This document shows positions 6,504 to 64,000 of a stretch of DNA of 64,000 nucleotides, one piece after another. Below the pieces are notes generated by a model. It saw only the letters and a program-made list of their open reading frames with translations, was not told the origin of the DNA and did not search any database. Position 1 is the stretch's first letter; every line of letters begins with the position of its first letter. The DNA is taken from the NCBI GenBank assembly GCA_016927995.1, contig JAFGLO010000015.1, positions 75,430 through 139,429 on the forward strand, given 5' to 3'. Source of the DNA: Candidatus Dojkabacteria bacterium. Lineage in GTDB: Bacteria > Patescibacteriota > Dojkabacteria > JAFGLO01. Position numbers and translations under genes: made by a program.

Positions 6504-6961
6504 TTTACCGATTTGATTTTTACTGATTCTTTTTTACCAGACGGGGTAGCATAATTTGCAGTATCTCCAGCTTCTTTGCCTAGAATTGCCTTGCCAAGTG
6601 GTGATTCAACCGAGAGTTTGTTTTCTTTGGGATCTGCCTCCTGTGGAGAAACGATTGTATATTCGATATCCTTTCTACCCTTAACAACGGTTACAGTTGA
6701 TCCGATTTCGGCAGTTTTGGAATTAACGTTCTTTAAAATTTTTGCGTTTTCAAGTATCTGTTCAATTTCGTTTATTCTTGCTACGTTGTTTTCGTACTCT
6801 TCCTGAGACATGCTCCAGGCACTGTTTTCCGATAAATCACCAGCTGATCTGGCTTCGGCCATTCGCTTACGGATATCGAGCATCTTGGGTCCCTTGCGTT
6901 CGGCAAGCTCGTTCTTTAATTGTTGTACTCCCTCTGCAGTTAATTGTACAACCTTATCCAT
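6500..6961 (-). CDS. greA: Transcription elongation factor GreA
   Basis: N-terminal coiled-coil plus FKBP-like C-terminal domain, typical GreA sequence, 153 aa. Confidence 0.9.
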   Translation of the reverse strand: MDKVVQLTAEGVQQLKNELAERKGPKMLDIRKRMAEARSAGDLSENSAWSMSQEEYENNVARINEIEQILENAKILKNVNSKTAEIGSTVTVVKGRKDIEYTIVSPQEADPKENKLSVESPLGKAILGKEAGDTANYATPSGKKESVKIKSVN

Positions 6962-6979
6962 GTATATATAATAAAGTTA

Positions 6980-7195
6980 ATGAAAAACGAAAGAATTATT
7001 ACACGTGTCATTCTAGTATGTCAAGTGATTGTTTCGGCTTTTGTAGATTTGTTAATAGTTGTCGCAATTACAGGGTACCGAAGTTCCGAACAATTGATAA
7101 CATTGTTAACAAATACCTTACCCGTTGGAATAGAGCTAGAATCATCTGTGATTGAGGATTATATCGGTTGTTCAAGGTGGGAACAACTAAAATAA
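6980..7195 (+). CDS. Small ORF encoding a single transmembrane helix; possibly the frame-shifted N-terminal anchor of the downstream L,D-transpeptidase
   Basis: Hydrophobic stretch VILVCQVIVSAFVDLLIVVAITG. The ORF ends 28 nt after the transpeptidase ORF opens in another frame. Confidence 0.25.
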   Translation: MKNERIITRVILVCQVIVSAFVDLLIVVAITGYRSSEQLITLLTNTLPVGIELESSVIEDYIGCSRWEQLK

Positions 7196-7623: not shown

Positions 7624-7732
7624 AGATTGTTGACCGCAGGTTGCTTATAACCCGTTATCAATGCTATGGGTTTGGCGTTTCGGGTTTGATACCTTTTACG
7701 TAATACCTTTAAATATACCGTTTCTCACTTGT

Positions 7733-7804
7733 GCCGCTATCGTCTAACGGTTAGGACGCGGGATTCTCAATCCTGTAATCGGGGTTCGATTCCCCGTAGC
7801 GGTA
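7733..7804 (+). tRNA. tRNA-Glu (anticodon CTC)
   Basis: Manual cloverleaf: acceptor GCCGCTA/TAGCGGT with G1-U72, D-arm GTCT/GGAC, anticodon stem CGGGA/TCCTG with loop TTCTCAA, T-arm CGGGG-TTCGATT-CCCCG. No CCA encoded. Confidence 0.8.
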
Positions 7805-7925
7805 TTTATTCAGTGGGGAATCGAACCTGTATCACTTGTTTAGTTTCTTGATCCATGCTCCAAGTATTCGCATTCAGCCTTAGCCTGAGTTAGGTACATC
7901 TCAGGCTCCCCGTAGCGAGTGGGTA
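7805..7925. other. tRNA-like fragment region: inverted T-loop motif GGAATCGAACC and a second copy of the tRNA-Glu 3' end (CCCCGTAGCG..GTATTT)
   Basis: Seen directly in the sequence. Neither strand folds into a canonical cloverleaf by hand. Confidence 0.25.
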
Positions 7926-41100: not shown

Positions 41101-41442
41101 AACATCCTTGGTTTATCGGATGACTGCTTCGATAGGTTTTTCTTATTGAAGAGGAAAGTCCAGACACCATGTGGTCCCGACTTTTCGGGATAGACACTCT
41201 GGAGACAGAGGTAGGTGAAAGCTTACGGAGAAAAGGGCAACAGAAAGTTATACCGCCCCGACTTGTCGGGGTAAGGGTGAAATGGTGGAGTAAGAGCCCA
41301 CCGGTTCCAACAGTAATGTTGGGATGCGTGGTAACCCCTGTCTGGTGCAAGGGCAAAAACGCCCGCATAGATTGATAGTCATACATTCCCGACTTGTCGG
41401 GGAGGACAGAATTTGGCTTATAGGTAGGCCAAGGATGCTTAT
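41101..41442 (+). ncRNA. rnpB: RNase P RNA (bacterial type A)
   Basis: Conserved blocks GAGGAAAGTCC (P4 5' strand), AGGGTGAAATGGTGGAGTAAGAGCCCACC (CR-II) and ACAGAATTTGGCTTA (CR-V). P1 pairing CATCCTTGG (41103-11) with CCAAGGATG (41429-37). The region is visibly GC-rich. Confidence 0.85.
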
Positions 41443-58471: not shown

Positions 58472-59404
58472 CTACACGGGATCTACATAGTAAACGATTT
58501 TACCTTCAAAGGTTTTAACTTTATATCTGCCCGGAGAAACCTCTTTAAGCCAATCAACAGGTACCTTTCCATATCCGCCGGGTAGATCTAAAACGTATGT
58601 TGGAATTGCAATTCCCGAAAGGTTGCCTCGAAGTGATTTGTAGAGCTTAAGCCCGGTTTTTATTGAAACTCTAAAGTGATGAGTACCTTTGGCTTTGTCC
58701 AGATGGTGAAGGTAGTAGGGCTTTATGCCTATCTGAACTAGGTTGGTAAACAGCATAGGAAGTGTCTTAAGAGTATCGTTTACACCCTTAAGTAGTACTG
58801 TCTGGCTTAGCATAAGGATTCCAAAAGATTGAAGTTTTTTTGTAAGCGTAATTGTTTTTTTACTGATTTCTCTTGGATGGTTTACATGAACCACTATAAT
58901 TACCTGTTTTTTCCGCTGAATTTTAGCAAGTTTAGCTATGACGCCTGCTGTTATTAGCTTTGGTGCTGCCACAGGGACGCGTGTATGAATTCGTACAAGC
59001 TTTACTGTGTTTTGTGCATTTAAGGTGGATAGATATGAAAATAAAGCGGGTAGATCAGCTAAAGGGTCGCCACCTGATAAAATTACCTCGTTAACTTCTT
59101 GATGTTTTGACAAATAGGCTTTCACTTTTTTAGGGTCGGTATGCGTGCTTTCTAAATTATGTTTTCTAAAGCAGAATCTACAATGAATCGCGCATTTATC
59201 TGTTGTAAGTAGAAGAATGCGATTTGGGTATCTGTGAATAAGTCCGGGAATAGGGGACTTAAAATTATCTCCGATAGGGTCGGTCAACTCGTATGGTTTA
59301 ATATTGCGCTCGTGCTTGCTTGGTACAGCCATTAGTCTAAGTGGATCATTAGGATTGGTAGGATCAATAAGCGACGAATAGTGTTTAGGGATTAGTGGTT
59401 TCAT
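58472..59404 (-). CDS. KamA-family radical SAM protein (lysine 2,3-aminomutase / EpmB-like)
   Basis: CAIHCRFC CxxxCxxC cluster in a KamA-type context. At 310 aa its length fits EpmB better than KamA. Confidence 0.65.
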   Translation of the reverse strand: MKPLIPKHYSSLIDPTNPNDPLRLMAVPSKHERNIKPYELTDPIGDNFKSPIPGLIHRYPNRILLLTTDKCAIHCRFCFRKHNLESTHTDPKKVKAYLSKHQEVNEVILSGGDPLADLPALFSYLSTLNAQNTVKLVRIHTRVPVAAPKLITAGVIAKLAKIQRKKQVIIVVHVNHPREISKKTITLTKKLQSFGILMLSQTVLLKGVNDTLKTLPMLFTNLVQIGIKPYYLHHLDKAKGTHHFRVSIKTGLKLYKSLRGNLSGIAIPTYVLDLPGGYGKVPVDWLKEVSPGRYKVKTFEGKIVYYVDPV

Positions 59405-59518
59405 ACGCGGCGATTATATCACGCTCTTTGGGTTTGCAAATAAATAGGATATAATTACGCGTAATAGGAGAGGTGCCTGACCTTGCCATAGGCAGATCTG
59501 GCCCTAGTTTATGTTCTG

Positions 59519-59606
59519 GGAGAGGTGCCTGAGTGGTCGAAAGGACCGCTTTCGAAAAGCGGCGTCCCGCTTGTCGGGACCGTGGGTTCGAATCCCACCC
59601 TCTCCG
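59519..59606 (+). tRNA. tRNA-Ser (anticodon CGA), class II with long variable arm
   Basis: Acceptor GGAGAGG/CCTCTCC. Anticodon stem CCGCT/AGCGG with loop TTCGAAA. Variable arm CGTCCCGCTTGTCGGGACC. T-arm GTGGG-TTCGAAT-CCCAC. Confidence 0.8.
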
Positions 59607-59716
59607 GGTGGCACCCAAAGGGTGTCAGCCGGAGAGGGATGAAGTAGGAGAGCCCAGTGAAACGGGGGCGGAACGTACCATAAAGAAAATATCAGCACGT
59701 CTTGGCCGAAGGCCAA

Positions 59717-59732
59717 AATCCCACCCTCTCCG
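59717..59732 (+). repeat. Copy of the tRNA-Ser 3' end (AATCCCACCCTCTCCG)
   Basis: Exact 16-nt match to 59591-59606. Confidence 0.8.
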
Positions 59733-59851
59733 AGTGTGTGATTCTTCGCCACGGTATTCTGGTCAAATTCTTCCCGCAAGCCTAGGCTTTCGGGAAAGTT
59801 AGCCCCTTTATAGGTGTGCGGGCTGGGTTCCCTGTCTGCCGACAGGTAGAG

Positions 59852-59867
59852 AATCCCACCCTCTCCG
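59852..59867 (+). repeat. Second copy of the tRNA-Ser 3' end (AATCCCACCCTCTCCG)
   Basis: Exact 16-nt match to 59591-59606. Confidence 0.8.
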
Positions 59868-59983
59868 CAGATGTGCTTTAGTATACAATATTTGACTTAC
59901 CCATATTTGAAAAGGTAATATAGGCCAATATGAAAGAACCTACTATACAAACATAGGTTATACAAAGGGCCAAAAAAAGATTA

Positions 59984-60205
59984 TTGATTGTGGGATTGGT
60001 AATACTTGGCTTGTTTGTAATATATGCAATTATTCCTAAAAGATGCGACGATTATGTGATTTTTACTGGGCATATTACTGGAGGTAGTGATGATTCTGGG
60101 TACATTTTAGTATGTGAATGTATTGGATATAAAATTCAAAGAAAATATGCTCCTACCGATAATTCTGGCACGTGCATTGGGATAATGTATCATAGGAAAG
60201 AATAA
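59984..60205 (+). CDS. Small hypothetical protein with N-terminal transmembrane helix, Cys-containing
   Basis: ORF only. Confidence 0.25.
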   Translation: MIVGLVILGLFVIYAIIPKRCDDYVIFTGHITGGSDDSGYILVCECIGYKIQRKYAPTDNSGTCIGIMYHRKE

Positions 60206-60369: not shown

Positions 60370-60388
60370 AAAAACTGGTGGAGGTAAT
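60370..60388 (+). repeat. 19-bp direct repeat AAAAACTGGTGGAGGTAAT (copy 1)
   Basis: Exact match to 61909-61927. Confidence 0.75.
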
Positions 60389-60449: not shown

Positions 60450-60611
60450 CTATATTAGAGGGCTTTTGATATTTTCGGTGTCCAGCTGACTTAAGTTCTT
60501 TTTTCTAAAAGTGAAATACTTCTTGAGACCATTCACATAACTTTTTATTGTTCTGGGGCTGTAATCACGAATTTCGAGCTCTCGTATTGTTATATTCAGT
60601 TCTTTTTGCAT
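60450..60611 (-). pseudogene. Tyrosine recombinase (phage-integrase) N-terminal fragment, truncated after 53 codons
   Basis: Hand translation gives MQKELNITIRELEIRDYSPRTIKSYVNGLKKYFTFRKKN.. then a stop. The ..YSPRTIKSY.. pattern is the integrase N-terminal SAM-like domain signature. No downstream frame continues the protein. Confidence 0.5.
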
Positions 60612-60706: not shown

Positions 60707-60756
60707 AACACTTCGGATAGTAACGAGTTGTACGCAATTCAAAAAAAGAGGTTTAT

Positions 60757-61101
60757 ATGGATGAAAAAATAAAACAATACATTGAAAAACAGAAGCCTAA
60801 AGAAAGACAGCTTATTGAAGAAGCGAGAAAATTAATATATGAAACGATTCCGGAATGTGATGAGTTTTTTCAATGGGGTGTTTTATGTTACTCTAAAGGC
60901 AAAATTTATATTGCTGCAATGAAGGACAGAATCCATGTAGGTTTTTCAATTATTGGTTTATCAAAAGAAGAGGTGAAAATTTTTGAAGGTAGTGGAAAAA
61001 CAGCCAGGCATATAAAAATATTTTCTGTTAATCAATTAGAAGAAAAAAATATTGCAGAATATGTTGAGATGGTTAATAAAAAAGCTGGTATACCTAGTTA
61101 A
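60757..61101 (+). CDS. DUF1801 (YdhG-like) domain protein
   Basis: Size and the conserved DUF1801 core pattern (..IPECDEFFQWGVLCYS.G..IYIAAMKDRIHVGF..). Confidence 0.5.
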   Translation: MDEKIKQYIEKQKPKERQLIEEARKLIYETIPECDEFFQWGVLCYSKGKIYIAAMKDRIHVGFSIIGLSKEEVKIFEGSGKTARHIKIFSVNQLEEKNIAEYVEMVNKKAGIPS

Positions 61102-61132
61102 CTTTTATTACCATTTTTTTTTGAACTGCGTA

Positions 61133-61215
61133 CAACAGCGTGTAGCCGGTTCGGGCGGAGTACCTCTCTCTCCCAAATTGCCTCCGCGAGTACGCTCCGG
61201 CAACTTCGGCTACAC
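61133..61215. repeat. GC-rich structured element: perfect 11-bp inverted repeat GCGTGTAGCCG / CGGCTACACGC enclosing nested GCGGAG/CTCCGC pairing
   Basis: Seen directly. Local GC content is far above the genome background. Confidence 0.5.
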
Positions 61216-61739: not shown

Positions 61740-61908
61740 GCGAAACGCTAAAGCCATGCTGCGCTCTCGTTCCGCTACGCTCCACTCGGGTCACATAACA
61801 CGGGATAAAAGGTTTGGCACTCGGCTCGTGTCTCACCAAAATTTTGCTCCACTCCGTTCCGCAAAACTTTGTATAGTCGCGGCACATTGTGGCGAAATTC
61901 CGTTCATT

Positions 61909-61927
61909 AAAAACTGGTGGAGGTAAT
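61909..61927 (+). repeat. 19-bp direct repeat AAAAACTGGTGGAGGTAAT (copy 2)
   Basis: Exact match to 60370-60388. Confidence 0.75.
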
Positions 61928-62590: not shown

Positions 62591-62624
62591 ATCGGTTCGC
62601 GTATAATCTATTAAGATAAGTTTT
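62591..62624 (+). repeat. 34-bp direct repeat ATCGGTTCGCGTATAATCTATTAAGATAAGTTTT (copy 1; contains TATAAT)
   Basis: Exact match to 63193-63226. Confidence 0.8.
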
Positions 62625-63192: not shown

Positions 63193-63226
63193 ATCGGTTC
63201 GCGTATAATCTATTAAGATAAGTTTT
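63193..63226 (+). repeat. 34-bp direct repeat (copy 2)
   Basis: Exact match to 62591-62624. Confidence 0.8.
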
Positions 63227-63812: not shown

Positions 63813-64000
63813 GATGAAGTTTTCAATCAAAACCACGGACATCGCAAAATACATGGCAAATATCGGGAGACTGGTTGATCCTAAACCGTCCATACCTGTT
63901 TTGGGGAATATCCTTATAAATGCATCAAAAGATGGAGTAATGTTTACTGCTTCAAATCTTGAACTTAGCATGCAGGTTACCCTAAAGGCCGATGTATCCG
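63813..64000 (+). CDS. dnaN: DNA polymerase III beta subunit (sliding clamp), N-terminal fragment (3' partial)
   Basis: MKFSIKTTDIAKYMANIGRLVDPKPSIPVLGNILINASKDGVMFTASNLELSM matches the DnaN N-terminal domain consensus (..P.LGN.L......L.L.A.DLE...). Confidence 0.75.

Follow-up and report, generated by a model that had tools for sequence, protein, structure and literature searches.

The window analysed here, a stretch of 64,000 nt from a Candidatus Dojkabacteria bacterium of the candidate phyla radiation (CPR), contains a tRNA-Ser(CGA) gene that is directly followed by two segments ending in copies of its own 3' end. It is suggested that these segments, referred to as units B and C, are divergent tRNA-linked repeat units of the RtT type (Rfam family RF00391, from the tyrT-tyrV region of Escherichia coli), and that one more unit of this type lies behind the tRNA-Glu gene of the window. 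The probability of this reading, which is based on comparison of sequences, was put at roughly 0.6. A unit of the RtT type would be a short, non-coding and hairpin-rich segment, arranged head to tail, whose final part repeats the tRNA 3' end between the T loop and the discriminator. The features that carry this reading at the tRNA-Ser locus are as follows.

59519-59606, forward strand: intact tRNA-Ser(CGA) gene (ARAGORN; Rfam RF00005)
59598-59638, forward strand: 19-bp imperfect hairpin between the tRNA-Ser 3' end and the inverted copy at the start of unit B (89% complementary; present in the minimum-free-energy fold)
59607-59732, forward strand: unit B, 126 nt, ending in a 16-nt copy of the tRNA end at 59717-59732 (repeat and shuffle analysis)
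59733-59867, forward strand: unit C, 135 nt, ending in GAATCCCACCCTCTCCG at 59851-59867 (repeat and shuffle analysis)

Anatomy of the units behind tRNA-Ser and tRNA-Glu

The tRNA-Ser gene was found where the initial annotation had placed it, with agreement between ARAGORN and Rfam (58.1 bits), and it does not encode CCA. The three copies of its 3' end described there were also recovered: the 16-mer AATCCCACCCTCTCCG is exact at 59591, 59717 and 59852, with start-to-start spacings of 126 and 135 nt, and the third copy matches the tRNA over 17 nt (GAATCCC...). The search for more copies that had been proposed was run over the window and returned exactly these three, with no further site at two or fewer mismatches and none out to position 64000. 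The chance expectation for AATCCCACCCTCTCCG in the window is 0.04 matches, and three or more copies occurred in 0 of 100 shuffles. At 59436-59887 the G+C content is 54%, where the window averages 38%, and the enrichment does not extend past the third copy. The folding z-score of 59455-59880, a stretch that includes tRNA-Ser, is -4.9.

Units B and C lie directly 3' of tRNA-Ser on the same strand, head to tail, and the 110 and 119 bp between the copies hold no open reading frame (ORF). Near its start, unit B has an inverted copy of the tRNA end, CGGAGAGGG, at 59630-59638, which pairs with the terminal copy at 59724-59732 (9/9 bp) equally well as with the tRNA end itself. It is followed by ATGAAG (59639-59644), which may be compared with the GAUGAGAA box of RtT, and a hairpin TTGGCC-GAA-GGCCAA (59702-59716) adjoins the terminal copy. 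In unit C, the T arm and the 3' strand of the acceptor stem recur in inverted form over 24 nt at 59732-59755 (75% matching), and the closing pairing joins 59732-59743 to 59852-59863 with 10 of 12 bp. A palindromic hairpin follows at 59771-59796, and then TGGGTTC (59824-59830), a hairpin CCTGTC-TGCC-GACAGG (59831-59846) and GAATCCCACCCTCTCCG, so that unit C keeps the last 24 nt of the tRNA, broken in the T loop by a 20-nt insert.

In shuffle tests the inverted copies reached p=0.018 for unit B, p=0.043 for unit C and p<0.001 for the unit behind tRNA-Glu, with a Fisher combination of about 1e-4. Beyond the terminal copy, no similarity between B and C was found by the repeat search, and the two units are unrelated. 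Both are single-copy in the window, hairpins included.

The segments between the copies had been taken for decayed tRNA-like sequence. This did not hold: no tRNA-model match at E<=10 was obtained outside 59519-59606, ARAGORN found none, and alignment against shuffles gave no significant similarity between the unit interiors and the tRNA body (p 0.08-0.97). On the same grounds, tRNA pseudogenes in the form of decayed tandem tRNA-Ser genes were rejected.

The window contains two tRNA genes, tRNA-Ser(CGA) and tRNA-Glu(CTC), and the second is followed by a unit of comparable make-up.

7732-7917, forward strand: tRNA-Glu(CTC) gene (7732-7805, Rfam 63 bits) and a 112-nt unit (ARAGORN, Rfam, repeat analysis)

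In the Glu unit, 13 nt of the T arm recur exactly in inverted orientation (GGGGAATCGAACC, 7815-7827). Its hairpin at 7882-7907 adjoins a copy of the 3' part of the tRNA, TCCCCGTAGCG, at 7907-7917, the original of which lies 116 nt earlier at 7791-7801. Past an indel of 4-5 nt, the likeness to the tRNA end appears to resume with GGTATTT.

On the 5' side of tRNA-Ser, three more features were listed.

59428-59455, forward strand: candidate promoter, TTGGGT, 16-nt spacer and TATAAT (59450-59455), inferred from sequence and below the threshold of the consensus scan
59467-59480, forward strand: 14-nt exact direct repeat of part of the tRNA 5' end, covering the 5' strand of the acceptor stem and the start of the D arm (sequence comparison)
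59481-59518, forward strand: 38-nt insert between the partial 5' copy and tRNA-Ser, with a small hairpin TGCC-ATA-GGCA (read from sequence)

The extra copy of the 5' end had likewise been reported before, and the first 14 nt of tRNA-Ser, GGAGAGGTGCCTGA, are indeed exact at both 59467 and 59519, 52 nt apart. Partial 5' copies upstream of tRNA genes were also found at other loci (L125, L192/L197 and L218/L222). These 5' forms are built as a mirror image of the 3' units, with a distal direct copy, hairpins and a proximal inverted copy; in the insert at 59481-59518, an inverted tRNA copy was not significant by the shuffle test (p=0.57). The best-supported interpretation of the 52-nt segment is that it would be a small 5' counterpart, a mirror-image remnant. 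Among the other 5' forms, L218 (about 6830-7120; also L222) has a tRNA-Ser copy of positions 1-58 with the T loop broken by about 95 nt holding four G+C hairpins, after which a degenerate 3' end and then the intact gene follow. In L125 (1779-1896 and 3515-3630), the duplication takes in promoter-like upstream sequence of two tRNA-Arg genes.

From the candidate promoter, transcripts would begin about 5 nt upstream of the partial 5' copy, and no intrinsic terminator was predicted on the forward strand between 59300 and 60100. Since a candidate TATAAT lies upstream and no forward-strand terminator is predicted up to 60100, B and C are probably co-transcribed with tRNA-Ser.

In the mechanism proposed for such units, the terminal tRNA-end copy could pair with the internal complement near the unit start, as the units described here permit, and would thus close a domain with one to three hairpins. 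The closing helix may resemble an acceptor stem stacked on a T stem, with a 3' tail like that of a tRNA, and units transcribed with the tRNA could be excised by tRNA-processing enzymes. The repeated tRNA ends would also let units be gained, lost or multiplied by recombination or slippage, of which E. coli strains and metagenome loci give examples. A bacterial RNase P RNA of class A was found at 41108-41436 (155 bits), which shows that an enzyme suited to the processing of tRNA-like ends is present in the organism.

Counterparts in E. coli and in metagenomes

The E. coli repeats of this type were reportedly described as 178-bp repeats by Egan and Landy in 1978, and to our knowledge no function or origin has gained acceptance for those behind tyrT in the more than four decades since they became known. 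In strain K-12 (L249), one unit was found behind tyrT and three behind tyrV, and all four scored 133-137 bits against RF00391. They are 175-178 nt long and each ends in AATCCTTCCCCCACCACCA, the last 19 nt of tRNA-Tyr (16 nt and CCA). Because a longer 23-mer occurs only in the two tRNA genes, the K-12 repeat starts at the same T-loop base as that of the window. One K-12 unit is annotated in RefSeq as the small RNA RttR, overlapped by tpr. One paper counts rttR among the repeated units in the tyrT operon, and a stable RttR (rtT) small RNA released from one such unit is reported for E. coli only (PMC3318445, citing Bösl and Kersten 1991).

The RF00391 consensus begins with an inverted tRNA end (GgGaaGGAU), which is followed by GAGAA (the region of the GAUGAGAA box), cCUUCGacc and aAGGUuCGAg. 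Its later part consists of the hairpins CCCGaAGgg and GcgCgaAGcG, with GAA and GCA loops, and then aAUCCuuCcCccaCCACCA (AAUCC...). This order equals the order that was worked out from the metagenome units.

The metagenome units were collected by a scan for two exact 16-mers 100-130 nt apart, which returned at least 120 matches; among the 120 matches listed, 71 were tandem intact tRNA-Ser genes and 49 had partial copies. A like anatomy behind tRNA-Ser was found at about 45 unrelated loci. Because the set was selected on spacing and exactness, its unit size and perfect terminal copies are uninformative; the interiors were not selected. A significant exact inverted tRNA-end copy was present in 16 of 43 non-redundant units (about 2 expected), and a separate direct T-arm 5' half (…GGTTCGAC) in 11 of the 43. 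Wherever both were significant, the inverted copy preceded the direct copy (5/5 units). Many of these units fold as a closing helix round two or three hairpins. When ten metagenome loci were searched permissively against Rfam, the tRNA-Ser unit of L146 matched RF00391 over the full model length with 30.8 bits and E=2.5e-4 (gathering score 45). Elsewhere such an arrangement is rare: in the DNA retrieved for comparison, a partial 3' copy within 400 nt downstream was seen for only 2 of 433 tRNAs.

Units that are 77-95% identical were found behind different tRNA-Ser isoacceptors (CGA, GGA) with unrelated flanks, which indicates that units have been copied between tRNA genes. A MAFFT alignment of 15 units aligned only the ends, and therefore no covariance model was built. 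In two contigs that had been called viral (L008, L122), a tRNA-Tyr gene is followed 169 nt downstream by a 12-nt copy of its 3' end, probably an RtT unit. At L127 (2727-3256), 377 nt separate tRNA-Ser(CGA) from its partial 3' copy, after which comes tRNA-Ser(GGA); judged by eye, this segment seems to encode a small GIY-YIG-type nuclease of about 85 aa, and it is the sole gene-bearing repeat-bounded case seen.

Gain and loss of units could be followed in E. coli. Units were found in 4700 of 5426 complete genomes, at 1-9 matching places each, and 726 genomes gave no match. In strain SK1144 (L248), tyrT and tyrV lie 33 nt apart without RtT units, and the downstream gene is different. The flank TCTCAAGCATTACC... 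after the K-12 tyrT unit is the sequence found directly after tyrT in SK1144. The comparison with an empty site that had been advised for the window was run on this E. coli counterpart: relative to the empty site, the occupied one has exactly one additional unit, with the tRNA-end repeat as its boundary. No integrase is known to take part in this case, and recombination or slippage between repeats would give rise to such a pattern as well.

The hairpins of the units carry a strand signature. In 45 metagenome units, C-GNA-G triloop hairpins numbered 38 in the tRNA sense and 2 in antisense (0.9 expected), and their density was 7.2 per kb in the units versus 0.13 per kb in the flanks of the same contigs. 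In the E. coli RtT region the count was 10 sense versus 0 antisense. Of the window units only B has such a hairpin, whose stem is the longest of the nine in the window. The variable arms of the tRNA-Ser genes at these loci have GNRA tetraloops instead.

Several observations weigh against placing B and C with RtT. Neither unit gave an RF00391 match at E<=10 within 59300-60100, and the gathering score of 45 was not reached, so that their membership rests on architecture and not on score. Unit B lacks the GGUUCGA piece, and unit C lacks both the GAUGAGAA box and the GNA loop, its hairpin having a TGCC tetraloop. In view of the missing score and the partial set of boxes in each, B and C were filed as a variant and not as members of RtT. 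Their inverted copies are individually marginal, and a gapped alignment test was not significant. Moreover, folding energies showed no preference for the sense strand (Wilcoxon p=0.42), and G-U pairs were not enriched on it (110 vs 167 overall; 1 vs 4 among internal mismatches). The metagenome set is heterogeneous, with some units lacking an inverted copy, and its regularity in size and terminal copies is partly an artefact of how the loci were selected.

Alternative origins and the neighbouring region

The initial annotation had regarded the repeats as att-like scars. In this explanation, tyrosine-recombinase islands or prophages integrated repeatedly into the 3' end of tRNA-Ser, and near-total deletion then left stumps of 110-120 bp. 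Identity blocks in the attachment (att) sites of tRNA-targeting integrases run from the T loop to the discriminator base, a subject reportedly treated by Williams in 2002, and the direct repeats of the window span just this part. Furthermore, the integrase N-terminal remnant that had been noticed about 600 bp downstream was confirmed.

60450-60611, reverse strand: truncated tyrosine-recombinase gene, N-terminal SAM-like domain only (Pfam Phage_int_SAM_4, PF13495, E=3.3e-6)

The remnant encodes 53 aa and then runs into stop codons, and a full-length gene starting from there would overrun the present units. A downstream mosaic of small accessory genes flanked by repeats would also fit such a history, as would bare partial copies of the 16-mer in some viral contigs and short classical stumps with contiguous tRNA fragments of 42-62 nt at L175 and L183. 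Against this, the segments share their internal anatomy with RtT units that are integrase-free in E. coli and at about 40 metagenome loci, and the G+C-rich structured content ends exactly at the third copy. No recurrent gene family was found beside those roughly 40 loci, and the ten largest adjacent ORFs included no integrase as judged by eye, without a Pfam scan. The unit behind tRNA-Glu has no integrase nearby. The remnant at tRNA-Ser lies outside the repeats, and no element with an integrase stands between the copies. The 16-mer is a very common tRNA-Ser 3' end and abundant in viral contigs, where 110 of 120 matches were in intact tRNA-Ser genes, but the tandem pattern occurred there 0 times. 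The hairpin pattern gave 2 matches in viral contigs, both irrelevant; a phage attP search of viral contigs with the unit flanks and the 16-mer returned no matching arms, and the plasmid collection queried with the two unit sequences gave no match. The repeats stood as described; their reading as att scars is borne out in part, as regards form, but not as regards cause, and now appears unlikely.

The region downstream of the units is variable too, as marked by the integrase remnant and by small genes bounded by repeats, which could not be linked to the units. A perfect 19-nt direct repeat, AAAAACTGGTGGAGGTAAT, occurs at 60370-60388 and 61909-61927 (spacing 1539 nt), where each copy ends a small ORF finishing in ...KNWWR, and the pair brackets the integrase remnant, a DUF1801 gene and a NUDIX gene. 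The DUF1801 gene is itself bracketed, in a cassette-like manner, by a 31-nt inverted repeat (84%) at 60727-60757 and 61106-61136, whose right arm is continuous with a rod-like palindromic element of high G+C content (about 61128-61215; GCGTGTAGCCG...CGGCTACACGC). The sequence TACGCTCC of this element recurs in another G+C-rich patch, located at about 61740-61900. Further on, a perfect 34-nt direct repeat (62591-62624 and 63193-63226, 602 nt apart) lies around a 157-aa ORF without a clear family. The nearest relatives of a neighbouring KamA-like protein were 54% identical in a protein search and 39% identical in a genome-collection scan, with one match. In the Logan assembly of SRR13394437, which was built independently from short reads of the same sample (L001, L123, L124, L247), breaks fall in both tRNA genes (7760/7778 and 59604), and the sequence restarts at 59838, 14 nt before the third 16-mer copy; 59605-59837, which is most of B and C, is absent from the gene-bearing contigs. 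The gap is probably due to shared k-mers or low coverage. Strain variation is a less likely cause, and the contig ends were rejected as evidence of it, since the breaks lie within tRNA bodies, off the positions that an empty-site variant predicts.

A second alternative is that the units are non-autonomous mobile elements which act as folded single-stranded DNA, in the manner of attC sites or of repetitive extragenic palindromic (REP) sequences and bacterial interspersed mosaic elements (BIMEs). The folded sense strand would restore the double-stranded end of the tRNA gene, and an enzyme supplied in trans would recombine the element into such genes. The C-GNA-G loop is the type found in unusually stable DNA mini-hairpins, and GNA triloops occur in RNA too. 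The strand bias of these triloops in metagenomes and E. coli, together with the missing G-U excess, hints at a role as single-stranded DNA, and the GNRA tetraloops of the variable arms point the same way; the documented RNA product of the E. coli unit counts in the other direction. Homologous units behind different isoacceptors would suit mobile elements, and the layout has the topology of an attI site followed by attC sites. In the literature, rtT-like elements are dispersed in enterobacteria and have been assigned to BIMEs (PMC2965389), and a preprint reports enrichment of the tyrT/rttR region in exonuclease-resistant DNA under stress (bioRxiv 10.1101/2024.07.17.603846). No associated recombinase or transposase was found, though, the hairpins of the window are not repeated elsewhere in it, and just one of its units shows the signature, so that this origin was judged distinctly improbable. 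The same low standing was given to a broader proposal, which we offer as speculation: RtT-type units might form a widespread superfamily that mimics tRNA ends, reaching from Proteobacteria-like genomes to CPR, sitting behind Ser, Glu and Tyr genes with mirror forms before Ser and Arg, and spreading as folded single-stranded DNA, in which the C-GNA-G hairpins of the sense strand and the internal target copy would rebuild the tRNA-gene end, into tRNA genes that act in an attI-like way without a linked integrase.

Very little weight was left to local replication errors without function or mobility, either as a decayed tandem tRNA duplication or as snap-back at the hairpins of terminator and tRNA (tandem inversion duplication). 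The direct-inverted-direct order with a hairpin at the turns is what snap-back predicts, the spacing equals that of a tRNA-Ser gene and a spacer, true tandem tRNA-Ser pairs make up 71 of the 120 matches listed, and arrays of near-identical units exist at L160 and L182. But the interiors bear no significant likeness to the tRNA body and homologous interiors stand behind non-orthologous tRNAs; boxes and loop types are common to the E. coli Tyr units and the Ser units, and the copies are exact where the adjoining sequence is not alike. Three more ideas were rejected: target duplication of the casposon or CRISPR kind, because the repeats range between loci from 11 to more than 50 nt in length; miniature transposons of the DDE type, because the ends are tRNA-specific; and ribozymes, hammerhead or other, because core motifs were lacking and Rfam gave no match.

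Comparison with known systems

The sequences indicate that the design of RtT reaches far more widely, and is less tied to particular tRNAs, than one would expect from the Rfam family. Its recurrence with tRNAs other than tRNA-Tyr, both in the reduced genome of a CPR bacterium and in many unrelated metagenome lineages, turns a single-species curiosity into a comparative problem, in which the tRNA-specific end copy co-varies with the internal complement across cases and the hairpin signature is strand-specific. It can now be asked which features are constrained, whether the active form is RNA or single-stranded DNA, and by what route units pass from one tRNA gene to another. In practice, island-finding tools that use tRNA-fragment repeats will misread such units as att scars.

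With attL/attR sites and tandem accretion, the locus has in common that the tRNA 3' end is directly repeated from the T loop onwards, that the copies stand in tandem and that a degraded integrase lies nearby. It differs in that the repeats enclose no element but only 110-120 bp of structured DNA, in which the target is copied in inverted form, in that comparable loci lack integrases, and in that the arrangement did not turn up in viral contigs. With integron attC sites and cassette arrays lacking an integrase, the apparent likeness consists of a platform site followed by strand-specific units of about 60-140 bp with an inverted and a direct core that could pair when a single strand folds; no R/L box consensus, integron integrase or cassettes are present here.

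Only two earlier descriptions under other names were found in the literature, sX4 and RtT. The small RNA sX4 of Xanthomonas (RF02223), which was detected by RNA-seq and northern blot (PMC3300014), is modelled as tRNA-Ser with a 3' extension of about 70 nt that pairs with the tRNA 3' strand. Matches to this model reached 28.7 bits in the window and 31-50 bits at several metagenome loci, all below the gathering score of 70 and mostly driven by the tRNA.

The closest likeness is to RtT itself. Like the RtT repeats, units B and C follow a tRNA gene immediately, on its strand and in head-to-tail order, and the tRNA end that closes each of them is copied exactly from the same T-loop base onwards (16/17 nt here, 19 nt in E. 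coli). An internal complement of the tRNA end near the unit start, which is the outer helix of the Rfam consensus, is also common to them. Of the further RtT features each unit has a part, with a candidate for the separate T-arm 5' half in unit C and a GAA triloop hairpin by the terminal copy in unit B, and as in RtT no ORF is required. On the other hand, B and C are shorter (126/135 nt versus 175-178 nt), more A+T-rich and mutually unrelated, and a 5' partial copy occurs here as well. Finally, the window units belong to a CPR bacterium and stand on tRNA-Ser and tRNA-Glu genes without encoded CCA, while in K-12 the CCA of tRNA-Tyr forms part of the repeat.

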